Source: Psammoneis japonica | Taxonomy: Eukaryota | Assembly (NCBI GenBank): GCA_008632985.1 | Contig: QPGO01000016.1 | Span: 406,840-470,839 of the forward strand | Direction of reading: 5' to 3' | Length of the DNA: 64,000 bases | In this document: one piece after another, positions 1,002 through 43,699 of the stretch | Layout of the letters: each line of letters opens with the position of its first letter | How positions within the stretch are numbered: position 1 is the first letter of the stretch | Notes under the pieces: model-generated | Database searches by the model: none | What the model saw: the letters and a program-made list of their open reading frames with translations, nothing else | Told to the model about the DNA's origin: nothing | Made by a program: the position numbers and the translations under genes

Positions 1002-1189
1002 CGTCCCAGCCGAGACAAGTCGAATTCCTGCCTGTTGTCGCCGGGTCAGCTCTACTCCGGAAGCAAGGTAGCACATGATGGTCCCACACCGGTCGCGGAG
1101 CCGTAGGGAGGAGCCGCGAGAGTGCTTGACGACTGCATCCATGCTTCAAACGCGAACATGTCAAAATTACTTTTCGCTTTTCGCGGGCT

Positions 1190-3050
1190 GATCGGGAACC
1201 GCCTGCAAGGCCGCTTTCATTGCCCAAGCCCTCCCCCGACAACACACCCACCTCAAGGACAAACAAACCCAAAGCACACTCTTCCAATGATGTGCTGTCA
1301 CTTCGATCACTCACCTCCTCACCATGGATGTTTGCTTCCAGTCCTCCAGCAATCTGGACCCATTCCACTGGGCCTCCTCCCCTTTGCCAACGCCGTTGTT
1401 GGTGACTCTCTCTGCTTTGTGCCCCACCCGACTGCCACCTCTTTGCCTCCTCCGACAACAGCTCAACTGACAATCTTCCTTCCAGCCAATCTTGGCAGTG
1501 TTGGCTGCCAAGGCATTCCCACCTTGGCTGTCCCCTTTTCCCTTTTATCTCCCTCACCCATGCTCTCCGTGGTGTTGCCAAACAGGGCGTGTTCTCAATC
1601 TGCGACCAGAGCTTTGAAGCACCACCCAGCCAATCCTCTGTTCTTTCCTTCTTGGACTCATTCTCAACTCTGCCTTCATCTCTGCACCATCTTCTGCCTT
1701 CTCTTCCCAACACTCTTTCAACTTGACTCCCGCAGTTGCTCTGTGCTGTCCTCAACCACAACCTCTGAGGCTTGTCTCAATGTGCCCCTTTTTCAATGCC
1801 ACCCACCCTTCAGCTGGTCCTTCTCTCCCCTCACCAGCCTTTGCCTCCACTCTCTTTCTTGAGCCTTCCCAAGTTGCTGCCTCTCATCAACTCAGTTTGC
1901 TCTTCTCCTCTGCAACTCTGCAACTCTGCCTCCCTGCCATTCCTCCCAGTCCATGGAACCTCCGTTTCTCCTGTGGACACTCCCACCCTGACCCCTTTGG
2001 TGACCATGCCTTTTCACATGACTTCTCACTTTTGAGTTGCTTGTGCCCACGATGCTGCCTGTGCCACCATTGAGGCTCCACCCCCCTCCACCTTGAACCC
2101 ACTGTCCCATTTCCCAACAATCCTCTCAAACATCCTGCTGGTGCATGTGGGAGTTCAACTTGCACTCCCAGGTTTGCACCCCCCCCNNNNNNNNNNNNNN
2201 NNNNNNNNNNNNNNNNNNNNNNNNNNNNNNNNNNNNNNNNNNNNNNNNNNNNNNCGGCTCCTCCCTGTCCTGAACCTGGTTTGCACACCCCTCCCACGCA
2301 ACTTGTCAAGGCTCACCTCAGCAGCACCTGGGAAAGGCTTCTTGGGCACAGCACTCCTGTGAATGGCTCCTCCATCTTCTCTGCCATCAGTCAACCAAGC
2401 CTCTTCCTTTTCCTTTTGCCCTTGGCTGACCACCTTGGCAGCATGGGTTGCCACTTTCACACTTTCTTCTGTGGCCACTCCCATGGTGCTTTCTCTTCTG
2501 TCTCTCGCTGCTGCCTCCTGAGCTGCCTTGGACAAGCAACCCCTCCATTTTCCCCCTTTTCAACCTGTCAATTTTCCCTCCTCTTGCCAACAAACCTCCT
2601 TGCCCAAGCCACCACTGCCCAGAGGCAGCTCTCTCCTGACCATTTTGGCTCCTCCTGTCATGCCTCCACACTCCCCAGTCATGGGCCACTCCTCAGCTCC
2701 TGAGCCTCAAATTTGGTCTTGCCCTTTTGCCCACCTTTTTGCTGCCCACCAACCCTTTTTGCATCAACTCCCCACCACCTCTGCTCTCATGTCTGTCTGC
2801 ACCAGAGGTGCACAAATCGTCTGTTGTTGTTTGCACATGCGCATTTGCACACTCAGCGTGCGCACGAACAAGGGCAACAACAGACAATTTGTGCACCTCT
2901 GGTCTGCACCTCCAGCCCCACCTTCTTCTCAGCTTCTCCCTCTGCCCTCTGCCACACACCCTGCACCATCCTTTCCCCTGACTCTTCTGCACCTCAAGGG
3001 TGCAAATCCTCTTGTTTTTCCAATGTGCATCATTTGCAAATAAAAGCAAA
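1190..3050 (+). mobile_element. 5'-truncated, degenerate CRE-like non-LTR retrotransposon (RT C-terminus, CCHC finger, restriction-like endonuclease)
   Basis: Fragmented motifs in the expected order: LKDKQTQSTLF.CA..I.HLL (~1250-1320), IFLPANLGSVG (LPxxxGGxG, ~1473-1506), SCGHSHPDPFGDHAFS (CxCG..DxxGxH, ~1969-2016), KAHLSS...LLPLADHLGSMG (PF.V...GG.G, ~2310-2450). A-rich 3' end at ~3040. Confidence 0.65.
2187..2254. other. Assembly gap (68 N)
   Basis: Run of N following a poly-C tract. Confidence 1.
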
Positions 3051-4849
3051 AAACCTGCCACAATGTTTTGATGCAGTGTGGCTCAATTCTGGAAAAAATT
3101 CCTCCAGAGTGCACTCTGCACTGACTGTGTGTGCAACATGACAATGGCCAAAAAATGCTGTTTGTTGAACAGTGCAATGCAGGTGGGGAGGCTGGCATCT
3201 GTTCTCACAATGTTGTTTGTGACACAAAGGCCTGTTGTGTTGTGAAAACAGACACTGGCAGCCCCACTGCATTTTTGAGAATGAACAACATTTTGGCCAT
3301 TGTTGCATTGTTTGTAAGGTGCAGCAAGTTATGAAAACAAAGGAGCCTGACCCTTTGTGGACTTTCTGCATTTCAAAATCTCAGTTGATTTTCACAAAGG
3401 TGTGCAGCAGCCCATCCACATAAAATCAATTGCTGCCCAATCATGCTTTGTGGCTTCTCTGGCGCACCTTTTCCAATGATCAGGTTGCAATTCAAAAACC
3501 ATCACAATGGCAAAAATAACACTTGTCTCTGCAATGCTCATCTCAAAGACAATTGGCCTGACACCACCAACAGCCCCTGTCCTGCAACTGACATGCACAA
3601 CTCATGATGTTGTGGTTGTTGAAAAAGGTGGCATGTTGAGTTGCAGTTGTGCATCTTGAGTTGAGGAACACCGCCACACAAAAAAGAACATTGAGTTCTG
3701 CACACATGAATGACAAGCAGAAAGCCAGGGTTTGTGTGCTTGGAAGAGTGCTCTGGTCATCAGCAAGCCCGCTGGCTTTGAACATGCTAATTTCTGCTTG
3801 GAGTTCTTGTGCTCCTGCAGCAGCATGTTTTTGGTGTTTTGGCAGCATTTGCCTCTCTTTGTCTTTTGCCCACAGTGCTCTGTTTTGTCTCATGTTCTGC
3901 AGCAAGGTGGCAATGCTGTGTCATTTGCAGTTTGATTTTTTTTTAGTGAGACATGGATTGAGAGCTGTGGTTTGAGGGGGCAACCTGAGCCAGCACTGCC
4001 AATCATTTGGGAGTGCCACAGGCGCCACTTTCACATTGTTTGTGCACAACAGATCACCTTGACAAGACTCACATGCAACAGTTGTGGACTGCTGTCATGC
4101 ATTTGATTCATTTGGTGATGTGCCCCCTTGCAGCTGGAAATCAATCTTGCATCTCATCCTCGCTGTTGGTTGTTGGGGGCATGCTGGAGCTGTGTCAGCT
4201 GTGTTGATTGTGCAAGACAGCTCTTGACTTGGAGCTCACCAAAAACACTTGGAATGACTTTTGTGTGAACGGTTTTTGTGCACTTGTCTCACATCACAAC
4301 ACTGCAACAGAAGCAGCAATGCTGGAAAACCTGCTGTTTGTGTCAATTTCGCACTGTTGCTCTGCTTGGAACTCAACAACTGCTGGAGTGACTTTTGTGT
4401 GTCAACTTGGTTTGTTTTAACATGTTGGTTTGGTCTGGTCATGGGAAATCTTGTCTGGAGATTTGTGACAGAAGCAAGTGGAGGCTGGGTCACCAAACCA
4501 GTTAGTGGCCATTGCAGGCAACAAGTCAAAGGGTGCAAAGCCCTTCAAACCAACACTGTGAGCATTTTAAAAAGTGCAGCCACAATGTTCAGCAGTTCAG
4601 TGCAGTCACCATGGGCACAGACAAAAGGCAGTTTTGGGGAAAGCACAAAAATCCAGGGACAAAGCTGAGAACATGCTCGGCCATTTTTTCCTGTCAACTC
4701 TGCATTTCCTCAAGTTGAGAGTGCATTGATCCTTCCCACTCAAAGCTTGGATGCCAAGAAAGGTCTTTTTTTGTTGTTGCACTCATTTTTGCTCATGGAG
4801 AAGAACTTCTGTTCAGCTCCACTGTCCCCACACGCCACACAAGCCAAAG

Positions 4850-5540
4850 ATTGTGAACCTCCTCCTCCCTCCCACACACACAACAACAACACCAGCAATG
4901 TGCAAACAGTCAGAAGAAGTTGTGTGGCAGGCATGGTTGGGTCAGGGTGTGTGCAAGAGTCCGTGGCGGCTGGGTGGCAGAGAGCAAGAAAGGCAGGAGG
5001 TGTGGACAGATGGGCAAGAAGAAGAAGCAAAGTGGTGCTGCAAAGAAAAGACAGAGAGGCAGGTGCAGGCACATGGCTGCAAAGCTGAGGAGTTGAGCAG
5101 CCCTGGGCTGGGGGCAGAAGAGCAGTGGTTGGAGCCAAAGCACTCAGAAGAAAGCCATGGGGGGAAATGTTGGTTTGAGCAAGGAGGTCAATCAGCGGCG
5201 GGGGTCAGCCAAGGTGGTTTGTGGGAGAGGCGGAGCAGAAGAAGAAGAGTTGTTGTGTGAGTGACCAAAAAGAAAGGTGTGGAAATGGCGACCAATGCTG
5301 CCCAAGTGATCGAGGGCAAACGGGAGAAGAAATGAGCCAGCTTGGTTGACGGCATCAATGACATGGGGGGAACAGAGCCGTCAGTGGAGGGAGCATTCTT
5401 GCATCCCAGAGAAGCCTGTCCTGGGCACTGCTGAGGCAGATGAGCCTTTGCAAGAAGATTGGAAGGGGCAGGCAAACCAGGTGCAGGGTGGGGAGCAGGG
5501 ATGGCACAGGATGATGATCAGTGGCTCTCTGCGTGCAACG
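4850..5540 (-). mobile_element. Second CRE-like LINE 3' fragment, inverted relative to 1190-3050
   Basis: Minus strand reads LAKAHL.SSA...FLLPFALDHLGSIGRHFHTFLFGHSH, homologous to LVKAHLSS...LLPLADHLGSMGCHFHTFFCGHSH at 2300-2483. Confidence 0.7.
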
Positions 5541-5751
5541 TTTTGAATTTGAACTGACCGACATAGCAATTCTTAACGGTCCGACGCGGCACTATCGCGA
5601 ATAATTACAGAAATTTTTGTCCTCGTATCTGGAGAAGCAAATAATTCTTACGATGACCAAATTTTCATTTTGAAATTTTGACTTCAAATCTCCGCGAAGA
5701 CCCACAAAAACGCGACACAACGACGTACACACAAAATCAACAAAAAGCGTC

Positions 5752-6705
5752 ATGAGGTTGTCTGCATCAAGCGCTCTATTCATCGCAGTTAGCTTTCAAC
5801 TTGCCCATCATAACTTTGGTCAGGAATGCGAACTAAAAGGGTGCTGCGAGGGCGATTGCTGTTCCCCAGGTCTATACTGGGACTTTACCCAGAACTTATG
5901 CTTACCTGGTCAGTTTCTAGTCTGGAGACATGTAATAATTTTAATGATTACATTGGCTGATTCCTTGCAAAGCTTATCTCCTTCTTTTCTTGGTCGTACA
6001 GATCCATGGTCGCCAGGTTTTCAAGGCGATTATGGCCCAGACTTTGACTTTGGCTGCGTAAATCGCGTGTGCTGCGACAGGTATTGCTGCGGCGACGGCG
6101 CCATCTACGATGAGGATCTGGAGTGTTGTATCCCAGAAGATGGTGAAATCCTGACTGTTTCTCCCACAATGGCCCCAACTACAAATGGCACAAACGAAAC
6201 GCTCCCTCCTACTCCGAAAAAGCCCTTGAAGAAGATTCGGATCTCGAAATTCTGCATTGAGGGAAGTCCGAGATTTCTTGAAGCGTTTGGCGATGATCTC
6301 GAAGTGTATCTCCATCTCAATGCAGACCGAAGGTACTATCCAAAAATGGGACAAGATCCTGCTGTAGTAGATTTCAATGATTGCCTTGATGTGCCGCTGG
6401 CTGACTCCGGTGGTTTCGTTGACCACCCTAACTGGAAGTCAATTTTTGTCGGTGTTGAAGACGTCGACGATTTGTCTTCGAATGACGTTGGGTCTGCGAA
6501 TGCTCCTCCAGCCAAATGGTTCAATCCCATTTGCACGCCTTACGAAGTTAGAATCTATTTAACATTTACCCCTGAAAAGCAGGTCACCCAGTGCTACTCT
6601 GTCAACATTACAACTTCGGGATTCTCTGCGGGTTTCCAACGTTGCGAGAACTTCACGGCTCCAGCAGAAAGTTTGCTCTGGATAGTTGAAGTGCACCCGC
6701 GCTGA
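5752..6705 (+). CDS. Secreted Cys-rich protein with PT linker and C2-like C-terminal domain; probable intron 5909-6001
   Basis: Signal peptide MRLSASSALFIAVS, two CC..DCC modules, TVSPTMAPT linker, V.D.DD.S.ND.G resembling a C2 Ca-binding loop. 93-nt GTCAGT...TACAG intron that is in frame. Confidence 0.75.
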   Translation: MRLSASSALFIAVSFQLAHHNFGQECELKGCCEGDCCSPGLYWDFTQNLCLPGQFLVWRHVIILMITLADSLQSLSPSFLGRTDPWSPGFQGDYGPDFDFGCVNRVCCDRYCCGDGAIYDEDLECCIPEDGEILTVSPTMAPTTNGTNETLPPTPKKPLKKIRISKFCIEGSPRFLEAFGDDLEVYLHLNADRRYYPKMGQDPAVVDFNDCLDVPLADSGGFVDHPNWKSIFVGVEDVDDLSSNDVGSANAPPAKWFNPICTPYEVRIYLTFTPEKQVTQCYSVNITTSGFSAGFQRCENFTAPAESLLWIVEVHPR

Positions 6706-7325
6706 GGAACTTTCTTTTTTTCACCGTTGGTATGCTTTTGTCGAATGTGATTCAGTGTCCATAGCGCGCGGCACGGACAGGGTTCAAGCAGGGACAATCC
6801 GAGAAAGACAGGCGAAGCGAATCATTGCTAGGGCCTATGTCGTATTATTAATTTGCATTATAAGATATATGTTAAAAGAGTTGCTAGCAGCTATTCATAT
6901 TGAATTTTATACACTATCCTGTTGAGCATTCGACTTGAGTCGGCTAAAGAGGCACGTGTTAACCACTGAAAGGAATGAACACAAGTTGTGCGTTTCCTCG
7001 AAAAAGTATGACTAGCTAGAAAAGACGAACTGTGGTAAGTAAGTTGCCCATTCCGTGGGTGCCATACAGTACGATGATTCTTCTCACTCCAATTGTCTTG
7101 ATGAGTGGAGTAGCACGATCGTCTAAGATTGATACGTGGACCAACTGAGCCTAAATAATTAACGCGAAACTTTCTTCGAACTTCAATGCAACGTAGAAAC
7201 AGCCCACGCCACGTAGATTTCTACGTGTCGTGTACCACGGCGCCTCCATTGCAGACAGAAGAATCTCTTCTACTAGTTCGAGTGCTCTCACAATTTCTGA
7301 ATTGCTCGTCAGTTCACAGTCCATC

Positions 7326-8354
7326 ATGAAAATCATGAACTTTGTCCTTGCCATCATTGTCGCCATGAGCGCTGGTGCCATCATCAGCCCTCTCTCTGTC
7401 TCGTTTGTTGATACGGCAAAGCGCTGCGTTAGCTCCTTGTCGATCAAGGCAGCCGCGGCGACCGACAGCATCGCCACGATCAACCAAGAGTTCCTACGCA
7501 AGTTTTTGGACAACACCCGTTACTCAGATATTGATACCACCTCAAGCTACTACCATAAAATCATCACCAACGCCGCTCCCAGCACTGTTCCCTTCGAAAA
7601 CGCCATCATTATTTCCAGCTTTTGCGTTTATTTTGACGACGGCGACAAGTCTCCGAGTCGCGTCCAAGACCTCCTACGCAATACCACGCCCACGAATGTA
7701 CCAGCAGAAGACGCCAACGAGTACTGTGTCTATGAATATTTTGTTCAGCACAACAATGGCGACTCCAACGGCAGCCTCCAGCAACTCTTTCACAACACCA
7801 CTCCCGACAGTACGGTTGAGACCAAGTCAGTCCCGTTCCAAGATACGTTCACGATATTTTTGGAGATCCAGTCGGCCTTCTTGTCGGACACGTTCAGCAT
7901 CTTTTCGGATATCAAGTCGGAAGCTTTTCAGCTTTGGTGGAAACTTGTAGACTTGATTTCGAACGACGTCATCTCGCAAATCCAGACTCAGGCTCGCGTT
8001 CTGCAGGAACGCGATATTTTTTTGCCGTTTCGGAACCCAATCTTGTCTAACCATCTCTCTGAGATCAAATCGAGTGTTGGACACTGGGGGAAGAAAGTTT
8101 TGGAGATAGCAAAGACTCGGGCGAACCCAATTTTGTCTGACTGTCGCTCTACCATGGAGTGGAAAGCCAAATATTGGGGGACGAGAGTTTTAGATACGTC
8201 GATTCATGTGATGAACGTTCTTCAAGATTCCGTGCCAATTCCGAAACCCCGTGAAGGACCCGAGAATGCTGTTGAGGTTCCGGCACCTGCCATTGAAAGT
8301 TGGCTCACGATTTTGAAACAAATCAGGCTCGCCTTTCGAATCGGCGTTTTTTAA
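7326..8354 (+). CDS. Hypothetical protein with N-terminal signal peptide
   Basis: Long ORF starting MKIMNFVLAIIVAMSAGA. No recognised domain. Confidence 0.55.
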   Translation: MKIMNFVLAIIVAMSAGAIISPLSVSFVDTAKRCVSSLSIKAAAATDSIATINQEFLRKFLDNTRYSDIDTTSSYYHKIITNAAPSTVPFENAIIISSFCVYFDDGDKSPSRVQDLLRNTTPTNVPAEDANEYCVYEYFVQHNNGDSNGSLQQLFHNTTPDSTVETKSVPFQDTFTIFLEIQSAFLSDTFSIFSDIKSEAFQLWWKLVDLISNDVISQIQTQARVLQERDIFLPFRNPILSNHLSEIKSSVGHWGKKVLEIAKTRANPILSDCRSTMEWKAKYWGTRVLDTSIHVMNVLQDSVPIPKPREGPENAVEVPAPAIESWLTILKQIRLAFRIGVF

Positions 8355-9320
8355 GTGCCCGTAAGCATTGGATGTCATGTGGGAGAAAATGCAGTCAAGA
8401 CGTTAGTGAGTCTCGATTAGCATCGAGGGGATATATGTTATTAGTTAGCTTCGAGCAGAAAGTATAGTACAACAAATTGACTATCGTTCACTTTTCTACC
8501 GTAGAGTTTGCCACTTTGTCTACCAGTCCTAACACCACTTCATCTAGCTCCGCCACTTGCAGTAACCGTCCTATCACCTTGGCCACGTTATCGGCGTCCT
8601 CAATTAGACGGATCCATCAAATTGGCCTGACCGTCAAATAAAGTGTAAATATCTCGAATATGTTCGGCAAATAGAAGTTCACAATCTCTACGAGAAAAAG
8701 ATGTAAACTCCCTACACGAGCCAGTCCTCTTGAGTTGGTACCGCACGTAAATGCAACTTTCACGATGGTACCAGAATTGAAGAGGTGATTGTAGAGTCAG
8801 TTCCACAGTCCAAGGTTGTTCTCCAGGCTCCATATCCAATGTTTCCTCTCAAGAATCTAACGATTGAGTTGTAACTACACTCTGAATCACGCACTCGAAC
8901 CATGGTTGTCATGCCAATGAATTATTCCGTCCGCATGGGACCCTTGGGTTGGCTCCTGGAAAAATATTGTTTTTTATATCCAGAGTTACACAAAGTCATG
9001 TGGAAAATTCGGTCTCGAGCACCATCGTCTCAAGACTGGCGAAGTTGTTGGACCACACACGGATCTCTCCGTATACAAACAAGAATAGTTCTTGGTACGC
9101 CCCATTTCTCTGAATATCATCAACATATTTTTTCTAAATACTCTTCATTCTCTGCTACTGTTAAACGAACGTTTTCACTTGTCCACCAACATAAAAAGTA
9201 AGATCACGAATGCACATTGATCCCAAACCTTCTTGAAACATGAAATATATACTCAATCGAGCGTGCTGTTGCAACACGCACGAGCCAAAGGAAAGAGGAG
9301 TCCAGAGAGTGGAGCGACTC

Positions 9321-10223
9321 CTACTTGAAACCGGCTGCATTCTGGTTGACCCAATCTTGAATAGTCATTGCCTTTTCACCCGTGATTGCTTCAAAATCTC
9401 CGGTATTGGCTTGGTTGGTGAGTTCACTGTCATCGTCAATCAACTTGAACAACTCCAAAATGCCGTCCACTTGCCACTCGGGAAAGCCCTTGGAGGCAAA
9501 GGCTTCCTTGGCCGCGTTGTAGTGGACCGTCGTTGGCTTGACGGGTTTGCCAAGAGCCGCGGTGAAGGCTTCCGCCATGTCGTTGAGCGAGTAGGCCGGC
9601 GAAACAATGTTGTACGTCTTGTCCACATGCTTGTCGGGATTGGCTAAAATGTCCGCCGCCGCCTTGCCAATGTCACTCACCGTCGCGGGCGTGTGCATCT
9701 TGGAGGGATCGCGAGGGTCGTAGAAGGTTCCCTGCTCCTTGATGGATTCGGCGTTGAGAAAGTTATTGTCAATAAAGAGAGGAAGGCGAATAATGGCAAA
9801 AGACAAGTCGAGCGACTTGGCCTTTTCTTCAATCTGTCCGAACTGCTGACCAAAGATCGTATCGGTACCGCAGGTCAAGACAGAGACGAGCAGCACAAAG
9901 TTGACATTCGCCTCCTTGGCAGCCTCGAGAGCGTTGATGGCAAGCTTGGCTCGGTCTTCTCTGCCCGGCACGACAATAAAGACTCGGTCAAATCCCTTGA
10001 GCGATTCCGTCAACCCGTCCTTGCTGACGCCCATGTCAGCCATGACGGCCTTGACACCTTCTATGGCTTCAAACTTTTCCGGGTCACGCGTGCCGGCAAA
10101 GGTGGCGACCTCTTTGCCGTGACGTTTGGTGAGAGACTCGAGAGTTGCCTTGCCTACATAGCCAGAGGCTCCGAGGACAAGAACCTTGGGATTTACTTGA
10201 CTTTTGGATAGTCCGCAGCCCAT
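9321..10223 (-). CDS. NmrA-like / atypical SDR NAD(P)-binding oxidoreductase
   Basis: VLVLGASGYVG Rossmann motif, GFDRVFIV, IIRLPLFIDN, SDIGKAAADIL. N-terminus MGCGLSK. Confidence 0.85.
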   Translation of the reverse strand: MGCGLSKSQVNPKVLVLGASGYVGKATLESLTKRHGKEVATFAGTRDPEKFEAIEGVKAVMADMGVSKDGLTESLKGFDRVFIVVPGREDRAKLAINALEAAKEANVNFVLLVSVLTCGTDTIFGQQFGQIEEKAKSLDLSFAIIRLPLFIDNNFLNAESIKEQGTFYDPRDPSKMHTPATVSDIGKAAADILANPDKHVDKTYNIVSPAYSLNDMAEAFTAALGKPVKPTTVHYNAAKEAFASKGFPEWQVDGILELFKLIDDDSELTNQANTGDFEAITGEKAMTIQDWVNQNAAGFK

Positions 10224-10330
10224 CTTTTGGAATTCTGTTGTTTTATGGGAGACGACAAACGGCGAAGCGAACAGCAAACCTTACAGCGAACACAGAATAA
10301 TATTTGTTTGTTCTTTTGTGTTGTTCGTAT

Positions 10331-10652
10331 TACTACGAATTGCTGAACAATTGCGCGATACACGTGCCCGAACGATGATTGTTGCTTCGGGCACGAAATT
10401 CGAGCTTCGCGCACGTAGAAACCGTAGAAAATGTACCAGCATTCGAGAATGTCCGATTTGTGTAGATCACGTAGCACAGTACCACGAGGTCATTTGATGA
10501 AATTCCCTCGACGACTCATACGACTACAATGAGATTTTCTATACCATGTGCTATGTAGAATGGACATCTGCGCGAAGGGAGAATGTTGCTTCGGGCAACG
10601 ATATTCGACCTTCGGGCACGTGAATCGCGCAATTGTTCAGCAATTCGTAGTA
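10331..10652. mobile_element. MITE (322 bp) with 42-bp terminal inverted repeats ending in TA (Tc1/mariner-type TSD)
   Basis: tactacgaattgctgaacaattgcgcgatacacgtgcccgaa (10331-10372) matches the reverse complement of 10611-10652 at 41/42. Internal direct repeat gttgcttcgggca at ~10381 and ~10585. Confidence 0.8.
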
Positions 10653-11100
10653 TACGGTAGGAACGGAGAGGTGTGTCCGAGCAGAAGATCTTTTTTCAGT
10701 TCGCCGACATCACCTTTCCGTTGAAATAGAAAATTATGTCCGTTGTGTTTCAAATTTGATATTATGAAAAAAAATTACGTATATTAATACACTTACTCCG
10801 CGAAAGATTTGGATCTTTGGACGGATATCCACGACTTCACTCTCGTATCCCATGCAAGCCCTACTCTACTCTCTCTGCTACCGGTAGCTACTCTCTAGCT
10901 AGTAGCTAGAGTTGCGTCTAGGCGAGCAACAAGTAGCCACAGAATGCAGCTCTACCATAAGTATAGTTTAGATGATATGCAAGAGATAAGTCCTCTTGAG
11001 TGACTAGACTGTCGGATGCAATAGTCGCTGCATGCCGGCGTATAACCAAAGTGAAGTCTCACAGTCAAGACGAACAACGCCCATACCGGTATACCAGCAG

Positions 11101-12047
11101 TCAGTTAGTTGCCCTCTTTAGGGGGAAACTGCGCTCAAAACATCCAAACAGTTTGGGTCCCTCCCCATCAGCCTTTGCATTCTTTTGCTGTTGGCGAAGA
11201 TTCTCTACCAGCCGGCTTTGCACCTGAGCACCAAAGGCATCACCATAGGTAGGACGAGAAGCTGCTTCTTCCATATACCGTGCCAGATTCTTCCATTTCG
11301 ACGCCACGTCAATGTCGGGAAAGAACATTACCACGTACAACAAGTAGGAAGCGACTGCCACGTCTGCAATAGAAAACTCATCTCCCAACAGATACTTTTT
11401 GGTTTCCAGTATATCATTCAGCTGGTCAATCCTACGATTGGGACGTTTCAAGCCGGTATCGTAAACCTTGCCTTCTGGAGTTTCAAGAAAGCAAATCGGG
11501 TCTAAGGAAGCATTCGCCCAGGCGATCCAAGATTTAATAGACGCTTCGTCCTGTGATGATGGCTGTGACGCAGACTTGGCCAAGAGATGCAAAAGAATCG
11601 CCCCCGACTCAAAAACAACAATGCCATTTTCGTCAACAAGGCACGGGATCTGCCCAAATGGATGAGGGTTATCAGCAAGGCTAGCAGCCATTTCGAGGTC
11701 CAAGCCAAGCTCGTATGCCGCCCAGTTGACGAGAGGGGACCTTAAACATGAGAGAAGGCAGAAGGCAGGTGAGTTGCGTTTGTATCGGGGACTTTGGGAC
11801 ATGCTTTGTATGCAGTATATCTTTACCTTGAACCTTGTGATCCATATAGAGTCATCATTCCCATGTGAAGCGCCATACCATGTCGGAAATTATTGTTCTT
11901 GGTGATTGTTTGTTGAGGCCACGATGGAAGAGAAAGAGGTTTCAGAAAACCTTTAACCCCGTTATCTCTTGGGAGGGCTACAAGAAGGAAGAAAGAAATG
12001 GCCACACAGCCACAAAGGCCCCGGCGTCTCATACTCGACAGCAACAT
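11101..12047 (-). CDS. Glutathione S-transferase, probably plastid-targeted; exons ~12047-11827 and 11740-11101
   Basis: LYGSQGSR|SPLVNWAAYEL, NPHPFGQIPCL, VFESGAILLHL, YLLGDEFSIADVA. GT-AG intron 11741-11826. Hydrophobic leader followed by VKGF. Confidence 0.85.
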
Positions 12048-12501
12048 GGTTATTAAGGTACCGTATCGGAGGAACTTGCATCAATCTTGATTGGCATCGC
12101 TCGCGACTTGCTTCGGGAATCCGGAATTTTCGCGTTGGATTTCGAATGCTGTACATGCTGCGTCGTGGAATCAAAAAGATTCCCGCGCCCCGGGCTCTAC
12201 TGTAGAGCTCTTAGCTCTAGCTAGCATTAACAGCTGCCACTAGCTAAGATAGAGTAGTCTGTCCGTCAGTTTTCTTGATTGATCGGCCATTGACCCCCGT
12301 TGATCAATGGTTTTGATGGCGGAAATGGCCTTCTCGGCTCGAGCTCGGCTTCTCACTGTAAATCGTTGGCTTTGCCGTTGAGAATGTCGAAGGTGTTTGC
12401 GTGGAATCGTTCACAGCCCCTGGCATGTTGGGGGCCCTGCGACTGAATGCACTGGGTGGTGTGTGCCGAGGAGTCTCCATCATCACAAAAAGAGCAAGAA
12501 A

Positions 12502-13958
12502 ATGGTGCGCCCGAAGAAAAAGGCGAGGCACCAGGGAAGGTTTGGTGCCCGAGCCCCTTCCGTGTGTGATGAAAATGGGCAAAGGCGTTTGCATGTTGGT
12601 CGTGAGTGTCAACTCCGCATGATTTCTGATGGCAATGATGTGTGGAGATGCCGAAATGACGGTGACAGCCGAAAGGGCACGTGGGACTCCATCGCACATC
12701 GTCATGGACGAGAAACAGGATTTTGAGTCAGGACTCAAGCCCAGAGCTTGAAGCACATGAGTCATCAAACCCTCCATTTCAAGAAACGAGGGTGTGTGTG
12801 AACTCCATCCAGCACAAGCCCAAGAAGTGCGAAGCTTGGGCAAGGACCCAGAGCAATTTCGAGTGCTTTTTGAAGGCGAAATTCCCGAATGATCCGCGCA
12901 CGCAATGTCTGAACGGATTGTTTCAGAAGACAGAGGAATGCCATGCAAATCCATTGGTTGTTCCAATGAGGCAGAAGCTGGAGCCACCCCGAGAAAGCCT
13001 CATTCTGTCTTGTGTGAAGTGCTTGCGAGACGGGGTTCCTGCTGGCAGGAGCATGAAGCACGGAACCATGTCGCTCGAGCTCAATTCATTGTCGTGCACA
13101 TTGATTGAGTTCTCACATTCGAAGGGTCTGAATCGCACAGCTGAGATTAAAAAGCTGTTGGAATCATGTGAAGAGGCAGATGATGTTTCTCGTGCCAAAG
13201 CCTTTGATCCCGAGATTTTTCTTCCCATGGCTTGGGATCAGCTCTGGAGATGCACACCAGGCCTTTCCTGCATGAGAAAGGTTCGAATTTGGTCGAGGCT
13301 GCTTGGTCAGCTGTCTTTCATTGGACGTGCATCAGATGTTTCTGAGCACTGTCCCTCAACATCCAAGACAACTCTGCCTCCTACGTTGTTGACTGCGAAT
13401 TGGCTGAAGGATGGGACGCCTCGGCATTTGGATGTTTGCTTTGACAATTGGAAGGGCAGGAAACCAACAAACATTGGAAATCCTCACCACACCTGCATTT
13501 GTCATAATCCAAAGAACTTGAAATGTGACCCTGTGATGTGGACACTCAAGGAATGGCGTTGTCGTAGTGAAGACAAAACAAAAAAGGCAAAGGCTCCAGC
13601 ATTTTTTACCGTTTCAACTCAGACTTGGAACAAGCAGCTCAGGGAATGCATTTGTGGCCCACTGGGGCTGCCACACACGTCCCACAGCATTCGACGCTCG
13701 GGCGCCCAGTGGGCTTCTTGTTGTGGGGCCGACATTGCCGTGGTTCAAAACGTTGGTCGCTGGGAGTGCCTTGCGGAGTTGTTGAAGTACGTTGCCCAGG
13801 GAAACCAACGGAATCGTCTTGCAAGCGAAGATGACCAAGACCCTGTTTTCGAGTTTTGGCCGTTCTTTCCCAAAACGTCCGTGACAGCCTTGGCCACCAC
13901 TGCAGAACAAGCCAACACCATGCGGTCAAGGGCGCCAACGGCAAGTCTCAATTGGCAA
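12502..13958 (+). pseudogene. Tyrosine recombinase (phage-integrase fold), mutated
   Basis: Catalytic set R (FIGRASD), H-x-x-R (HSIRR), W (VGRW), Y (LLKYV, 13788-13790). The likely N-terminus MVRPKKKAR (12502) is in another frame with TGA at 12724, so the gene is probably disrupted. Confidence 0.8.
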
Positions 13959-14044
13959 AAAAACAGCAGCACCACTTTCATTGCACTTCATGTTGTCGTG
14001 TTTTTGTGTTTTGAAACAATGCCAGTCGATTTGCTTCGCCATTG

Positions 14045-14905
14045 TCAGCATTGTTTTTCGATGTGGATGATCTGAGTCTCACACAGAACACAAAGCTGTT
14101 TTGTGCGTGTGCTGCTGGCCGCCTTTCTGAGCAGTTGCTCAATTGTCCAATGAGCCTTGAGACGCTGCGCAAGCTTCGAGTCCCCGCCGAGATTGTGCTT
14201 CTTCAATTTGGCAGACGACCACAGGCGGACTGGAGAACACACTTGACATTTTGTTTCTTCCACCACCTTTTCTTCACATGCACGGACTGCTGCAGTGGTG
14301 TGTGTTTCCTCTTCTGTTTTAAAAAATGGCTTTGGTGCAAAACACTTGTTCTCACCACCTCTTGGTAACGTTGATGGAGGCAACCGGTCGCCGAGTGGCA
14401 CTGCTGAATCTTGTGCTTGTTCTTGCCGGGGTGGAGCCAGCAGGCAAGACGGATCCACAACGTGGTTCACCTGCACCTGACGAAACCCACGACGAATCAT
14501 TTCGTCTCTCATGGCTTCTCTTGAAACAGAAAACAATTCGTCAGTGAATGGATTTGCAAAAAAGAGTGCATCTTTGAAAAGAGCGACTTGCTCTCATGCA
14601 ATCGGCCATGTAGACTGATTGGTCACTCCGTCCCCAGCAACGGCGCCATTCTCGTTGATTCCACATTTCATCACATGGCACGCGGCATCCCTTTCAAAGG
14701 AGTCCGGGTTGAGCTCCCCAAATTCCTTGTCCCAATCCCTTGTTGCTGATGTCACTTCAAACAACTGTTCAACAGTTTGTGACGGTGGATGGGGTTGAAT
14801 CGAAGCCATGTCGCCATTGTGGTCTCCGGCGTCGGCATCATCGGCCATGTTGTCAGCCACATGGAGGGCTTGATTCACATCTGACAAGTCATAAGTCAGT
14901 GACAC
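14045..14905 (-). pseudogene. Second, convergent ORF of the YR element (unknown function), split by one in-frame TGA
   Basis: ORFs 14594-14905 and 14045-14536 are in the same frame, separated by a single TGA (likely CGA->TGA) plus 19 sense codons. Confidence 0.5.
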
Positions 14906-15822
14906 GATGCATGAAAATGCAACTCGTCATCATCGTTCTTTGTGAAATCCATCACGCGGAGCTCGGAGGGAGAGGTGAGGTTTCCCGCGTTGATCGAGGG
15001 TTCGAGTCTCGTTGATCACCGCAGACGCTCTGCAGGCGCCTGCACTGGAGACTTCGTTGATCGAGGGTCTCGATCAATGATCGACCCGTAGAAAGCCACC
15101 TCTAAATCAACAGAGCAGCGCGCAGGGGGGGCGAGCAGTCTCTACTAGCTAGCTAGAGTAGAGGGCTTCTACTGCACAGGTGACCGGATAGAAAACATCT
15201 TCTCCGTCCCCCCCTCATCTTGGCGGGATTGATCAGCCAGTGTAGCACCGGCACTACGGTGCGACATACTTCTAGAACAATGGTGCTTGACGCAGTGGGA
15301 GGAGTCAGTCGACCGCTGCTAACTCCGACTCCGAAACCCTGCTCACTACTCCGACCAATTCACGGCGTTAGGGCGTACGCGCGTCTTTTCTTTCTTCAAA
15401 GCCACACGACTCCATGAGAACGCACTGCTGCTGACTGGCGTGTACGAAATGCGACGTACAATAAAACAAAACATGTCTGTTATTCGTATGTACTGTATGA
15501 CCGAGAACGATGCTGCGAGGAAAAGAAAAGATCCAACCGAAGAGTAGCATGGTGATCGTGCATTGTTGTGGGCTAACCCCAAGAACGAGAATCAATGCAT
15601 CGCACATTGAACATCAACGACACGAACCAAATTGACAACTTGATATCTCTAAAATAGCTTTTACAAAAGCACCATCTCTTGATTACTGAATCACAAGCCA
15701 AGCCTTATACTCCTGCATGCCACAACTGAAGGAACAAATATAAAGAGTAGCTTGCTCTCGCCTTCATTGCAGAATAGGAGACTGTCCCGCCACAAAGAGC
15801 CGCGTTGAATCGCCTTGACAAT

Positions 15823-16678: not shown

Positions 16679-18048
16679 ATGCCGTCGAAGAAAAGCTACA
16701 GTAACCGACGCCGTTGCTACACATTGGGGTTTCTAACAACGTTCGCCTCGAGGAACCCTCAGCTATCAACGGGTTTCGCTCTACAGATTTATCCCAATCA
16801 CAGAAGAAATCCTATCAAAACGAGCTTACGCAAGAGAGAAATTCGTCCCAGCGTAGGAAAGGAAAGTCGAAGGACTAGCAATTCGAATAACAAAAGCGCG
16901 ATGAAGAAGGAACCCATCTACTACGCAAATCACAATTTCAAATCTATTTCTGTTACCCGACAAGATTTTCTGCAGTTTGGGCTAGTTTTTAGTTGGTTCT
17001 TGGTAGCCTCTATTGGCTTTCAACCTGCGTGGTCTTCCGAGAGAGACGACGATAACAGGATTCCCGAAGAATGTCAAGATGGTTCGCTGGTTACTGGTGC
17101 GGCGTCTGCAACACCCGTGTATCTTTCTACCAATGTTGCTTCGTAAGGCAGAATGAATTCTCATACCCTTTTTCTTCATTCGCAACAGAAAGTGCGGTTC
17201 CTGGAGCCTATCAACAGGTGTGCATGTCGCTTCCAGAACGAACTATAACGCTCAAGGTCGGTCCCCAAATTGTAATTCGTCGTTGTTGCTACACATTCTA
17301 TGTGAGAAGAAATCGAATATGAAGTGCTTCTAATGCGCTTTTTTTCATGTTCTAGGCAACGGGGGATGTGATTACTGTTAAGCAAGGCCCAGCTGTTGGC
17401 GCGGGCCAGACTGGTGTAGCCGTGTGGAATTCATGTCTTCTATTGACACGACTCTTGGACGAAGTGAGCAGTGCCAGCAGTTCTTGGCTCAACAACAAGA
17501 CCGTATTGGAACTAGGCTGCGGTACGGGGCTAGCATGCATTGCCGCAAGCAAGTTGGGGTCGTCGTCTGTGATTGCGACAGACGGGAATCCTGATGTTGT
17601 CGATCTTGCTCAGACCAATGTTGAGCTGAATGGGCTATCGGACAATGTCGTGGCTACTCGGACAATGAAGTGGGGGATTATGAATGCCATGGATTTTGTC
17701 GAAGTTGCCGATGTTGTCATTGGCAGCGACTTGACGTATAATTCCGGAACTTGGAAAGTGTTGGCAGAGACTTTATCCACAGTACTCAAGCCAAATGGCT
17801 TTGTGTTGTACCTTACTCTGGGACATGCTGGCTTTGATGTAACTGGGGAATTGAATGGATTTCTTTCCGTTGCGACTAGCGAGGGTTTGGAAATAGTACA
17901 AGAGAGTAGTCCTGATTGGCCTTTGCCTGTTCCATCGTTGACGAAGTTGCTGGAAAAGTCCATCACACTGAAAGAAACTGCAGTACTCGCTGCTACTGGT
18001 GGGGTAAGAGTGGTGATTTTACGTAACAAACCCGCCCAAAAGGCGTAA
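16679..18048 (+). CDS. SAM-dependent protein-lysine methyltransferase (METTL21/family 16-like), multi-exon, possibly organelle-targeted
   Basis: TGVAVWNS, VLELGCGTGL, VIATDG, DVVIGSDLTY. Probable exons ~16679-17096, ~17189-17256 and 17356-18048. Confidence 0.8.
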
Positions 18049-18161: not shown

Positions 18162-18689
18162 TTACTCTTCTATTTCATTCACTTGCTCTTGTTGTTCCAG
18201 ACGTCTTAGCGCAACTTGTGCAAGCTTATCTCTCTTGCGTTCTCCAAGGACGGTCTTGATGGCCGCCATACTTTTACGCACCTTCTTTCGACGCTCCGGT
18301 TGCGGAAACATCATGGTTTTCCGTCTCGACAAATTGGCTTCCGTCAAAAGCATGTTGTTTTCCTTATACAACACATACCTAAAATGAAAGTGGAATAGAC
18401 AAAGTAGCTATCCCATTAGATCGTGTCACACGTCGAGACAACGCAAGAATAAGAAACCATGTAAGACCTACCAAAGCTTGTGCAAGTCTTCAAAACTCTT
18501 ACGGCGCAGCTCCTTCACGGTCCATGAACGACCGACAGGTTCTGTGCCTCGTTTTTCGCGAGATACAGAGTCGCGAAACTCATCCAAGGGCATCCCGAGT
18601 GGAAAGGTTGCGGTGGCAATCCAGCACCTTTGTTGGACCGGTCGCACTACTACTTGTGTGAGTTTCTTGGCGAAACAATAATGAGCCAT
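18162..18689 (-). CDS. MRPL47: Mitochondrial ribosomal protein uL29m (L47); intron 18379-18471
   Basis: GRSWTVKELRRKSFEDLHKLW|YVLYKENNMLLTE...KVRKSMAAIKTVLGER. Confidence 0.9.
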
Positions 18690-21436: not shown

Positions 21437-22182
21437 TCATCCTAGAACCAAGCTGTTATTGTCGTTGTTGACCTTTTCAGTATGGTACTTGTTGGACAGT
21501 TCATCATAATCTTTGATTAATCGTGCTACCGTTTCCTGGAATTCTTTCTTTTCGGGAACACAGTCGTCGAGCTCTTCAATCAAGTCCATGATGCAAGCCG
21601 AAGCAAAATACTTGTTTTGTTTCCTGTATGTATTTACGCCCCATAACTCATGCATTCTTTTTTAAAGATAAAGAAAAAGCAGGAAAAGGATAAGACCAAG
21701 CTCAGACAGAAAAGAAGGATACAAAACGCCTTCAAAAGTGCTCACGTGTTGATATCATGAGGAATTCCTTGTGCTGAAGTGATGCTATACGGAAAGAAGT
21801 AGTAGATCTTATTGAAGCCCGACCACAAAATACTGCTGACACACATGCAACACGGTTCATGTGTCGCTAAGAAGACAGATGATTGCGCAGCAGCACCTCG
21901 TTCCGGTGCTGGAGTAATCTTACTCCATTCATGGATGCACTTGACCTCGCCATGAAAAAGCGGACACTCCGTCTCGTCATTGGTGGCCGCAAGAACTGTT
22001 TTCAGATTCGAGTCGAGAATTGCTGCACCAAATACCTTGTTTCCTGCCGCAACTCCCTTCTCAGTGATTGGCAAAACTTCCTTTTCAATCACATCTAGTA
22101 GAAGACGTATTTGGTCAGTGGTCGCTTTCAATTCGGGCTGCTGCTTTGACTCATCGATCACGACGCCTTCCGTTGTACTCAT
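21437..22182 (-). CDS. Zn-dependent nucleoside/nucleobase deaminase (CDA/guanine-deaminase-like fold); intron 21657-21745
   Basis: GNKVFGAAIL, PLFHGEVKC (HxE), THEPCCMC (PCxxC), GIPHDINT|MHELW. Confidence 0.85.
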
Positions 22183-22510
22183 CTTTTCGATTTCTCTTGA
22201 GGTTGTTGTTTTCCTCTCGTGAGCAGCGTTTTTTCCCTCAATGGTCGTCCGATTTCGACCCAGACTGACCAGATGCTTCAAATTCTGTTGACACGAAACT
22301 TCTGCAAAGGTCAACGGAAGCCGGCGCGGATGAGGATACGGGACCTCAAAATTTGCCGCCAACGAAAATCTCCGGGTTCCGATCACGAAACTTCCCTCCG
22401 ACCTCGCGATCGTTTCTCTCCATTGTGAGACATGCACCTTGATTTTGATTGGAGCATACCCCGGAATCATCGTTGTTCCATTACCGAAGTTGTGGCAGCC
22501 AAGATAGTAG

Positions 22511-22566
22511 TCTAACGTACCAGAGGGTTAGGGGAGAATCTAACGTACCATAGGGTTAGGGGAGAA
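22511..22566 (+). repeat. 28-bp tandem duplication containing GGGTTAGGGG
   Basis: tctaacgtacca(g/t)agggttaggggagaa x2. Confidence 0.8.
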
Positions 22567-22766: not shown

Positions 22767-25080
22767 TTAGACACGGTCCTCGTCAGCTTCAATGCCTTCT
22801 TCAACTGCAACCTCATCGTCGTCTGCGACAGCAGCTTCCATTTCTTGTTCACCGTCAGGGGAAGCTTCCATTTTCTGTTCAACATAGTATTCATCATCGT
22901 CGGGGTTATCAATCTCATCGCTTTCGTCGCTTTCTTGAACTTTGGTGGTTTCATCCTTTGGCATGTTGACTCCGGCATCTTCAGGGAGGATAAAGTTGAG
23001 AAGCATTGCAACGACGGTGCCAATGCAGTATCCTGTCGACAAAAAGATTGAGACTCCGTTGCGCACACCCTTCATCGTATCAGAGCAATCCTCACACCTC
23101 CAAAAATTCGCCGTGTAACTTGAGCCACGCATATCTTGAAAGGCAAAAGGCCAAACAGTGACACCAACTCCAATAGCGAGACTCAATGCCATGATGAATT
23201 TGACGCGGCGACTATGGATATCGAGACACCCTGCCAACGAAATTCCACTGACTAGAACGTTGGCGAACAAAAAGATAGTCATACCACCCAAAACGCAGTC
23301 AGGGATGCTTGTAATAATGCCTGAAAGCAGAGTTCACACAGTGAAATTTAAGAGAGTGTCGAGAAAAGTGAAATACTAAAACAGACACCATCACTTACCT
23401 GCGAACTTGCTAAAGATTCCCATAATAAGCAGCCAAAACGCAGCACCGTATCCCGCACGACGACTGGCGCATTTGGTCAAAGCAATCACACCATTGTTCT
23501 GAGAAAAAGTCGTGTTCGGCATGGTGGTGAACAAACCAGCCAAAATCGAGGCAAGAGCATCGGATGTAAGACCTCCCTGCAAGAGTCCGAATACTCCTGC
23601 GACTCAGTCGAAAGGTCAGAAACTTCATAGACAGCAGAGATGTCCCCAACCGTCTCGACGGTGGTCACCAAGTAACTGTACCCCGAAAGAAGACAGTGAC
23701 GATTGTCAGTCATACGAGAGAGGATTCCGAACAACAACAAGAAAGCAGTGAACGTACGCAATTAAGAGGGGAATGACAGCGGGACCATAGAGACCGAGAG
23801 GGAATGTATGAACCCACAAGAAGGTAACGGGGTCCGCCAACTTGATGTTGTCAGTGTTAACGTAGCTTGCGCCTTGATAGTCAGCAATGGCGGCGATCAT
23901 GTATCCGAACAAGAGCGCAAGGATCACTATGGGTTCGTCGCAAATGAGCGCAACAAAGATTGAGCTAACGAACAAAAGAAACACGAGGGGACTCATGATG
24001 ATGAACGTAGATACTCACCGTTGCAATTCTTCATGAAGATGCTTCCAAACAACTCGATGAATACAAGGAAAACCATGACTGAAAATCCCAATCCTACTAA
24101 CTCCGGCGATCCATAGCCCAAGGCAACGTCTCCGTTGAAGCAAATCGGCTGAAGCAAAATCAACGCTGATGAGACCCAAGGCAAAGCGGCTCAGCAAGAT
24201 GTAGCACTAGGATGGAAACTTACACTCGGGTTAATGGGAATCATTTCCGATGCCGTTTCGTTGATTTGACCATGCTCTTTCCACACCATGTCGGCGCAAA
24301 CGGCTCCTCCACCCCAGTATTTCATACCTGTTCCGGCAAGGGCGACACCAATCAGAATGACCGTAATGGACGTCACAAGAGGAGGGAACACACTCTTGAT
24401 CCACTTGAGCGGAAAGAGGGAGAAGAAGAATTCCAAGAGAGCGCAGAGCATGCTAGTTCCGAGCATGGCACCGTACGCTTCTAAACTATCCACTCCGTCG
24501 GCCGTTTGCTGGCGAATACCAATCTCGAAAATGGGTAAGAACGTAAACGAAGTTCCCATGACGGAAAGGACGCCACTTCCAATGTAAAGCTGACGCCCCC
24601 AGAACTTTTTGGAAAATGGAACTGGCGTCTTGGAGATATTCATGATGGTGGTCAACCCACTAGTGATGAGAGCTGCAGCGATCGCATACTGCTGCAAATC
24701 AACACAAGTGAAGCAGATGGTGAAGCGGAAGATGACGTAGGGAACTGTAGAAAACAGTACGTAACAAAATAAAAAAGAAAAAATGAGTTCGCGTTGAGCG
24801 AGACAATCTTTCGCACGATCACAAGTAATCATTTCAATCTTCTCACCTGTAATGAGCCCTCCAACCATGGCAAAGGCGTGCTGCAATCCCATGACAAGAG
24901 CCATAAAGATCGGAATCTCTTCATCTTTGGTGTAAAAATTCACCTTTTTCTTTCTCCTTTGTTGAAACAAGGACAGTTTGGAATGCACATGGACTTGTAG
25001 TCGTAGCGCTCCCCAGAGCCAATAAGACGATCACGCCACGACTTGTCGCTGGCGCATGGCTGATGACAGCTGAATCCCAT
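22767..25080 (-). CDS. NCS2/NAT family purine (xanthine/urate/uracil) permease, multi-exon, with apparent homopolymer frameshifts
   Basis: MGLQHAFAMVGG, GVLSVMGTSFTF, FPPLVT, NAT signature TTFSQNNGVIALTKCASRRAG, GGMTIFLFANV, acidic C-terminal tail. Confidence 0.9.
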
Positions 25081-33880: not shown

Positions 33881-34149
33881 GAAATTACACACGAGAAAAA
33901 GAACATTTGTCGGTTCTCTTGAAAGAAACGAGGAGAAAGAAAGGACCCCTGCCTCGTCCCCCGACCTCCCCAAAGCAAGGTGCGCTAGAGAGAAGAAACG
34001 CGCGACATCGGACAGCACAATGGCATATGCTGAGCAAGTGCTGGGTGCGACGCCTGTGAAACGCCGCAAAGTCCAATTCCTCGTTGTAATCGACATTGTG
34101 TGTCGAAAAACAGTTTTCAGTTTTCATAGAAAGCACAATCTGCCTAACC

Positions 34150-43620: not shown

Positions 43621-43699
43621 CACCCTGAATCCACAGCCAGCACACTGTGGCAACCATGCAATCAGATTTTGGCTCAGACAGATCAGTGCAGATTTTCAA

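Follow-up and report, generated by a model that had tools for sequence, protein, structure and literature searches.

A Crypton-like DNA transposon with a tyrosine recombinase (YR) gene is present at 12248-15144 (2897 bp, plus strand) of the 64,000-nucleotide stretch of contig QPGO01000016.1 that was analysed here (positions 406,840 to 470,839 of the contig; the whole stretch is called the window), and it contains very few TA dinucleotides while keeping most of its CG. The lineage of this element was probably struck by a process at the DNA level that converts TpA to TpG or CpA, that operates apart from CpG decay, and that covers a slightly wider domain and is further advanced than that decay. 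The direction of the change, its specificity, its independence from CG loss, and its confinement to the element were established in the analysis described below.

Nucleotide composition of the element and the window

The stretch 12290-15050 had been singled out in an earlier reading made from the letters alone (hereafter the sequence-only reading) as one that keeps abundant CG and holds only about 11 TA, and a full count agreed with this. Its 2761 bp contain 11 TA (observed/expected ratio, O/E, 0.07) and 134 CG (O/E 0.75), and both strings quoted in that reading were found. TG and CA are enriched (O/E 1.46 and 1.48, respectively), and AA, TT, and AT (O/E 1.33, 1.29, and 0.89) show no depletion. 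The background, which comprises the 41,989 bp outside the depleted domains, has O/E values of 0.62 for TA and 0.96 for CG. The lowest TA count in 544 background windows of 2761 bp was 89 and the mean was 122, and the Poisson probability of 11 or fewer TA at 12290-15050 relative to these windows was 6e-38. The TA change points were placed at 12256 and 15089, and the TA-depleted core of the element spans 12263-15088, with 11 TA (O/E 0.06) and 141 CG (O/E 0.77). TA density is normal in the flanks as far as the junctions, and within the element TA is retained in the first 15 bp and the last 56 bp.

Depletion of TpA with enrichment of TG and CA was found in five domains of the window, with TA O/E values of 0.02-0.15 and TG/CA O/E values of about 1.5. 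When the window was divided into 128 windows of 500 bp, 82 were normal, 33 were low in both TA and CG, 8 were low in TA only, 5 were intermediate, and none was low in CG only. Five of the 8 windows low in TA only lie inside the Crypton-like element, two are at 49001-50000, and one is at 1001.

Direction of the change

Relative to the background expectation, the element lacks 92 TA and 37 CG and carries a surplus of 116 TG plus CA. The combined TA and CG deficit and the TG plus CA excess are 129 and 116 in the element, and 366 and 311, 397 and 399, 662 and 689, and 102 and 105 in the four islands described below. Decay of CpG driven by 5-methylcytosine (5mC) was rejected as the sole cause, since the CG deficit of 37 is set against an excess of 116. 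The claim of the sequence-only reading that TA loss is no by-product of CpG decay was upheld by the same figures and by Tyr codons that are now Cys or His codons.

A change of TAY to TGY replaces Tyr with Cys, and a change of TAY to CAY replaces Tyr with His. The 22 Tyr residues of P0001, the closest homologue of the window recombinase, that aligned to the window protein correspond there to Cys (9), His (5), Tyr (1), or other residues (7). Close homologues have Tyr opposite 9 of the 25 Cys of the window protein and Cys opposite only 4, and at position 269 the window protein has lost the Tyr of a column that is at least 90% conserved in an alignment of 37 sequences. Three metagenomic relatives have TA O/E values of 1.14, 0.92, and 0.80, so the recombinase family is not TA-poor by nature; judged from these alignments, the TA loss in the element is mutational rather than intrinsic.

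Conversion of TA to TG or CA never creates an in-frame stop, because TAA and TAG themselves require TA and TGA can arise only from TAA. Open reading frames (ORFs) are abundant in the converted sequence for this reason, with 29 ORFs of at least 60 aa in 3.7 kb and 71 ORFs of at least 100 aa in the islands. The TA dinucleotides that survive are not a random sample: over all depleted domains, 60 of 77 are in TAA or TTA, versus 744 of 1862 in the background, and the contexts ATAT, ATAC, and ATAG account for 0, 1, and 1 survivors, respectively. This bias reflects either a preference of the agent for the 3' neighbour or TA that was newly created.

The recombinase gene and the limits of the element

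The main ORF of the element (12681-14075, plus strand) encodes 464 aa and was recognised from its homologues and its catalytic set R216, K258, H335, R338, W361, and Y370. R216, K258, and R338 are invariant in the 37-sequence alignment, and H335, W361, and Y370 are at least 90% conserved. When a profile built from these 37 sequences was compared with PDB, Cre or Tre recombinases made up 17 of the 18 matches with E values up to 1 (best E 1.5e-4), and the segment H-x-x-R...W...Y was aligned in these matches. The profile matches and the conserved catalytic columns together identify the ORF as a tyrosine recombinase. Its only Tyr codon (TAC, 13788-13790, plus strand) occupies the position of the catalytic nucleophile and aligns with the Tyr of the Cre motif ...MNYI.... 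The N-terminal part of the gene is in a different frame (12397-12720, plus strand) and aligns to residues 28-124 of P0001 (E 3e-06). One extra base is present behind 12720 in all 4 of the contigs from DNA run X1 that cover this place, which indicates that a 1-bp deletion private to the present copy has shifted its frame.

The Tyr content of the window ORF is 0.2%, and the median among the 150 best of 204 homologues is 3.4%. Four of these 150 (P0159, P0206, P0226, and P0243) have no Tyr at all, and in the alignment they carry Cys or His at conserved Tyr positions; the catalytic Tyr position is occupied by Cys in P0159 and by His in P0206 and P0226. The replacement by Cys and His suggests that relatives elsewhere met the same fate, and these four proteins appear to be additional hypermutated copies that are present in other public assemblies. 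A metagenome scan with P0001 alone gave no relative, and a scan with the narrower alignment (A3) gave 3 loci.

The limits of the element were taken from an X1 contig in which 12247 is joined to 15145 with only TAG between them. This contig represents the empty site and sets the element at 12248-15144; the insertion site is polymorphic, the element being absent from one public DNA contig. A second X1 joint, from 10912 to 15145, was set aside as probably the same contig end placed again on a similar palindrome. Summed X1 contig depth, which is derived from contigs and does not equal copy number, is approximately 320-600 over the element and approximately 60 in its flanks, so related copies exist elsewhere in the X1 sample; the family reaches roughly 5-10 times single-copy depth at a likeness of at least 85%. 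The ORFs tested against Pfam (the YR ORF and the minus-strand ORFs 14045-14536 and 14594-14905) had no match. Neither reverse transcriptase nor any other domain was found in the element with Pfam, which leaves the YR as the sole enzyme found, and the repeat analysis of the window gave no long terminal repeats at the element. The sequence fits a Crypton-type DNA transposon in having a single YR gene but neither reverse transcriptase nor long terminal repeats.

Both flanks are rich in CTAG. The repeat analysis placed a palindromic target with normal TA on the left (12196-12247, inverted repeat I2) and the palindrome CTAGCTAGCTAGAGTAGAG on the right (15145-15170), with similar motifs at 10895 and 55666. 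Neither a short direct repeat at the termini nor the crossover could be placed to the base within the CTAG palindrome, 3 letters being present between the flanks at the empty site. Palindromes of the form CTCTACT..CTAGCTAG..AGTAGAG recur at 10880-10925, 12196-12262, 15135-15175, and 55650-55690, and CTAGCTAG occurs 7 times in the 64 kb. The Crypton-like insertion sits between two such palindromes, another is found at the right edge of island 4, and the recombinase may prefer them as targets.

Islands and the relation of TA loss to CpG decay

Four islands outside the element were delimited by change-point fits for TA and for CG separately. Island 1 is TA-depleted at 1169-5564 with a CG-depleted core at 1238-5532. 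Island 2 is TA-depleted at 29254-33986 with a CG-depleted core at 29358-33610, and it includes an array of tandem units of about 200 bp at approximately 31270-32700. Island 3 is TA-depleted at 42204-50400 with a CG-depleted core at 42270-48637, its right 1.76 kb being poor in TA with CG kept. Island 4 is TA-depleted at 54300-55659 and CG-depleted at 54400-55805. The statement of the sequence-only reading that island cores lack both dinucleotides agrees with the counts (TA O/E 0.02-0.06, CG O/E 0.09-0.20), as do the two TA-poor margins in which it saw CG retained: 48750-50050 has 11 TA (O/E 0.13) and 61 CG (O/E 0.81), and 29290-29450 has 1 TA (expected 7.9) and 8 CG (expected 7.3).

At 7 of the 8 island edges TA depletion extends beyond CG depletion, by 32, 66, 69, 100, 104, 376, and 1763 bp, offsets below about 100 bp being near the resolution of the method. 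The order is reversed at the right edge of island 4, where CG loss extends 146 bp beyond TA loss. The proposal that TA loss acts further out was thus supported in part, holding at seven edges and failing at one. In the element TA is at approximately 10-15% of expectation and CG at approximately 80%, and in the 1.76-kb right margin of island 3 the values are 23% and 78%. If both losses are treated as first-order decay, the ratio of the TA to the CG log-decay in the TA-only domains is 6-10, a minimum estimate, TA having already reached its floor. This ratio makes it plausible that TA loss is also the faster of the two, as the sequence-only reading had supposed.

Timing of the conversions

Island 3 contains two paralogues that were compared by pairwise alignment. 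The left copy (42552-43614, plus strand) has lost both TA and CG, and the right copy (48802-49859, plus strand, overlapping the minus-strand F-box-like ORF at 49469-50077) has lost TA and kept CG. They are 75% identical and have TG in one copy and CA in the other at 17 sites in 1013 aligned bases, versus no such doublet in 944 and in 906 aligned bases of two control duplicate pairs of normal composition, the second of which is 74% identical. Such a doublet means that the two copies independently converted an ancestral TA or CG. CG in the right copy is matched by TG or CA in the left copy at 33 sites, and only 3 sites show the reverse. Because the right copy kept most of its CG, most of the doublets must derive from TA, and much of the TA loss accordingly postdates the separation of the copies, in the CG-decayed and the CG-retaining copy alike. 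CG loss thus goes with position, presumably that of the methylated domain, and not simply with time.

The tandem units of island 2 have 18 columns in which TG and CA are mixed, versus 0-7 for five control dinucleotide pairs. Island 1 was also compared with its orthologous X1 contig, and 11 differences were present in 2992 bp. Among the 9 of these that were listed are two CA/TG doublets and one difference each of the types TA/CA, TG/TA, and CG/TG; these differences, small in number, are of the kind that a process still running would leave.

Copies of the element itself were compared in the same manner. Among the differences listed, there are at least 8 places in the element where every X1 copy differs from the present one. 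With the X1 state given before the state found here, these 8 listed places consist of one TA versus CA, one TG versus CA doublet that accounts for two places, two CG versus TG or CA, one TG versus CG, and two that do not involve these dinucleotides. The TA versus CA difference is at 13097 (TA in 6 of 6 X1 contigs, CA in this copy) and the doublet is at 14860-14861 (TG in X1 contigs, CA in this copy); both imply that some conversion is private to this copy. Taken together, the comparisons give signs that conversion acted after copies separated and between alleles or strains.

Proposed mechanism

In the explanation that we favour, a DNA-level process acting on one dinucleotide only would have changed TpA to TpG (CpA on the other strand) in the lineage of the element. 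It would be distinct from the deamination of methylated CpG, and CpG decay would additionally have emptied the cores of the four larger islands. The TpA domain would be slightly wider than the CpG-decay domain and several-fold further advanced where CG survives, and the converted sequence would stay open in many frames while its Tyr codons became Cys or His codons. Both strands are converted, as seen in the 9 Tyr to Cys and 5 Tyr to His replacements on the coding strand, and action on DNA is argued for by the lack of an RNA intermediate in the host element. Editing of an RNA intermediate was rejected on the same two grounds, the element being a DNA transposon with both strands converted.

The agent would be an enzyme, for which the dinucleotide specificity and the context bias of the survivors both argue, and the leading candidate reaction, also the one put forward for Bigelowiella natans, is the deamination of adenine at TpA on DNA. 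The sequence-only reading had likewise favoured an active enzymatic process, with which the B. natans preprint (10.64898/2026.01.13.699255) and the survivor bias are consistent. The process may be aimed at mobile or foreign DNA as a defence; the boundaries of the element match those of TA loss, and no island ORF has a recognisable transposable element (TE) domain (0 of 71).

Several observations weigh against this explanation. The process is known here from its footprint, and not from an enzyme, a base modification, or a de novo event. TA is normal in the high-depth repeats (7028-8800 and 9983-11164) and in the 94%-identical duplicates of the window, so the process does not strike every repeat. 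None of the 71 island ORFs of at least 100 aa has a TE domain in Pfam, and to call the island cores mobile DNA is therefore an assumption; a TE domain in the islands was likewise not found among 36 large window ORFs (Pfam). The mixed TG/CA columns of the island 2 array are mostly 5:1 or 6:1, although simple independent conversion predicts 1:1; repeated switching by way of a TA or CG state that did not last long would explain such columns better than a single round of conversion. The allele comparison of island 1 rests on the 9 listed differences. The assignment of the host to diatoms is based on leads, given below with the genes of the window. Finally, a diatom mutation-accumulation study reports CG, CC, and TG as mutagenic contexts (PMC6604790), and the available portion of that article has no mention of TpA hypermutation or of transposons.

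A broader proposal is that a TpA-directed DNA-editing defence is active in diatoms, and so in a second eukaryotic supergroup, independent of cytosine methylation, reaching slightly beyond the methylated core, sparing TAA, and working fast enough for TG and CA to flip between alleles, and that some Cryptons survive it. We put this forward tentatively and consider it more doubtful than not. Some Crypton lineages would survive because no stops are made and only the catalytic Tyr codon must escape conversion.

Alternative explanations

The TA-poor state may have been inherited, in that conversion took place once in an ancestral copy, the resulting copies stayed mobile, and one of them inserted here already TA-poor. 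We regard this as a serious possibility that falls somewhat short of being probable; if it is correct, the TA state is uninformative about silencing at the locus or the time since insertion. On this history active copies could themselves be poor in TA, the case that the sequence-only reading had named as counting against its own view. In its favour, the site is polymorphic (the insertion is missing from an X1 contig), the family is multi-copy at roughly 5-10 times single-copy depth and at least 85% likeness, the six catalytic residues including the one encoded by the sole Tyr codon are intact, and TA to TG or CA changes cannot create stops. Depletion ends within 15 bp of the left end and 56 bp of the right end of the element with no leakage into the flanks, and the 8 listed places at which no X1 copy agrees with this one also suit an inherited state. 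Two of these differences, TA versus CA at 13097 and TG versus CA at 14860-14861, are at the same time conversions private to this copy and so count against it, as do the post-separation conversions in the island 3 pair and the island 1 alleles. A protein that has lost at least 14 conserved Tyr may be inactive, the frame of this copy is shifted at 12720, and the four Tyr-free homologues have lost the catalytic Tyr too. The sequence-only reading treated TA loss followed by CG loss as successive stages of one silencing history that could be used to date the silencing of TEs, which appears unlikely. The scatter of the 500-bp windows is L-shaped (8 low in TA only, none low in CG only) and the log-decay ratio of 6-10 in the TA-only domains has the required direction, but TA is saturated in all depleted domains (O/E 0.02-0.15), which leaves it without time resolution, and at one edge CG loss reaches beyond TA loss. 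The island 3 paralogues, which have a single divergence time, are both TA-poor and differ in CG state (33 versus 3 sites) according to position. Because one divergence time gave differing CG states with TA at its floor in both copies, the two-stage clock was not supported.

The remaining alternatives concern the chemistry or the reality of the change. At TpA, which is its own reverse complement, A to G and T to C changes look identical, so adenine deamination and thymine modification are inseparable from sequence. A modified thymine (5-hydroxymethyluracil, 5hmU, or a base-J-like derivative) that mispairs and gives T to C could accordingly have left the same footprint, and enzyme-made 5hmU has been linked to TE silencing in dinoflagellates (PMC11572971); set against this is the preference of the B. 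natans preprint for an ADAT2-like deaminase, which it bases on homology only, and we judge thymine modification to be improbable. Selection or intrinsic composition in place of a TA-specific mutation, whether as TA avoidance, a foreign TA-poor origin, or GC-biased gene conversion, is very improbable. Normal genes of the window do go down to TA O/E values of 0.25-0.4 (the 5 intermediate windows); however, coding, non-coding, and frameshifted sequence are equally depleted, AA, TT, and AT are not depleted, conserved Tyr residues have become Cys or His, and relatives have normal TA. GC-biased gene conversion in particular was rejected on account of the untouched AA, TT, and AT. A sequencing or assembly artefact, such as a modified base miscalled at TA, is scarcely credible: the only pointer to it is a 68-N gap in island 1, and it is opposed by the contig of an independent run that reproduces 2992 bp of island 1 with 11 differences, by normal TA in flanks on the same contigs, and by Tyr-free homologues in other public data.

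Other features of the window

The genes of the window include those for pheophorbide a oxygenase (with the presequence ...SRATGF...), phytoene synthase, HSF, and others. For the oxygenase and for HSF, the Atlas clusters nearest to the window proteins are found most often in Bacillariophyta. This and the presequence are leads rather than proof, and they make a diatom the probable host. A deaminase-fold ORF and a xanthine/uracil permease ORF, 1.7 kb apart, are present at 21742-22527 (minus strand) and 24191-25030 (minus strand). The deaminase-fold ORF is of the cytidine/deoxycytidylate type, with the motif HGE...PCCMC (Pfam dCMP_cyt_deam_1, E 6.9e-9), and a PDB sequence search with it gave no match. 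Most simply, the two ORFs are a nucleobase salvage pair, and nothing connects them with the TpA conversions. A homologue search with a sulfatase ORF returned only bacterial-like or nameless matches.

The sequences at 7028-8800 and 9983-11164 have summed X1 depths of approximately 700-2600, versus approximately 60 in single-copy flanks, with TA O/E values of 0.56-1.02 and normal CG, and are apparently high-copy sequences untouched by the TpA process. Island 1 lies between two direct duplicates of normal composition (5-955 and 5944-6894), which differ at 57 of 944 aligned bases (94% identity); they could be ends resembling long terminal repeats, or a tandem gene duplicate with an insertion between its copies. 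The F-box-like ORF in the TA-poor, CG-retaining margin of island 3 extends over 48848-50077 (minus strand, E 4.7e-5) with an in-frame stop at 49466-49468, and a decayed paralogue of it lies inside island 3.

Contigs of run X2 skip 99, 93, and 86 bases at 17254-17354, 18375-18469, and 11739-11824, respectively, and the first two skips end in GT..AG (CT..AC on the minus strand). In this respect X2 resembles a transcriptome, the skips being short introns of neighbouring host genes. No X2 contig covers the element, which is not evidence about its expression.

Significance

Hypermutation of invading DNA that is specific to TpA appears to have one earlier report, a 2026 preprint on the chlorarachniophyte B. 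natans (10.64898/2026.01.13.699255), and the host of the window, which is probably of the diatom lineage, is probably a second lineage with the TpA to TpG/CpA signature. A literature search for TpA-specific loss in diatom transposons found nothing. Were the same process to work in the diatom lineage, it would have to be old or to have arisen repeatedly, and it would be testable in an alga with transformation and methylome tools.

Three points go beyond the main text of the preprint. TpA loss and CpG decay are spatially nested and yet separable, the target is a DNA transposon, which argues for action on DNA and not on an RNA intermediate, and the TAA bias of the surviving TA would be a handle on the sequence preference of the agent. 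In practical terms, converted sequence is free of Tyr, rich in Cys and His, and open in many frames, and it misleads gene callers and hides transposons from domain searches.

Comparison with known systems

In repeat-induced point mutation (RIP) of fungi, C is changed to T mainly at CpA, so that TpA rises. The footprint in the window is like RIP in being a segment-confined hypermutation that ruins mobile elements through transitions in a preferred dinucleotide context, and differs from it in that TpA is destroyed, GC content rises, and near-identical duplicates are untouched. RIP was rejected as the process at work here because the direction is wrong: TpA falls, CA rises, and the duplicates of 94% identity are unaffected. 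The CpG decay of 5mC-methylated transposons likewise produces TG and CA and is present in the island cores, but it cannot remove TA, and in the element about 90% of the TA is gone while about 80% of the CG remains. Editing of retroelements by ADAR or APOBEC resembles the present case in its deaminase-driven transitions, and ADAR is described as preferring a 5' U (Discussion of 10.64898/2026.01.13.699255). These enzymes act on RNA or on reverse-transcription intermediates and on one strand, whereas the element is a DNA transposon with both strands converted.

Cryptons, including the CryptonS group of stramenopiles, have been reported in oomycetes and one diatom (Kojima & Jurka 2011, PMC3212892). 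The element resembles them in its features: it has a single YR gene and no reverse transcriptase, is a few kilobases long, is without long terminal repeats, and has a low copy number. The TATGG termini described there as typical of most CryptonS were not seen at its junctions. Unlike DIRS and Ngaro elements, it has no reverse transcriptase or RNase H, and Pfam gave no DDE transposase.

The closest parallel is B. natans, for which the following figures are taken from the main text of the preprint (10.64898/2026.01.13.699255). In mutation-accumulation lines, 231 of 302 nuclear mutations fell in integrated giant-virus and virophage regions, and 230 of these 231 hypermutations were A to G or T to C, all at TpA. 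The genome contains 324 TpA-poor coding sequences, among which reverse transcriptase and DDE domains are enriched, together with 124 TpA-poor clusters in which CpA and TpG are abundant, and the authors propose that an ADAT2-like adenine deaminase acts on DNA. CpG has 0 mentions in that main text, in which CpG decay nested in TpA loss is not described. B. natans is a chlorarachniophyte (Rhizaria), whereas the window host is probably of the diatom lineage. De novo events were measured in B. natans, whereas the window shows a footprint only, and the active regions of B. natans are partly depleted (Rho 0.45 in the insertion of a nucleocytoplasmic large DNA virus, NCLDV), whereas the depletion in the window is at its floor. 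The two systems share the target dinucleotide and its products, kilobase-scale clusters that are poor in TpA and rich in CpA and TpG, a tie to mobile or foreign DNA, seen in the window at the Crypton-like element, and many ORFs that cannot be annotated. From the published figures (211 events, 6169 TpA, 3132 generations), a rate of approximately 1.1e-5 per TpA per generation was calculated, which by our own arithmetic implies a TpA half-life near 6e4 generations. If the B. natans rate applied here, TA could disappear well ahead of CpG decay even from an insertion that is young and polymorphic.

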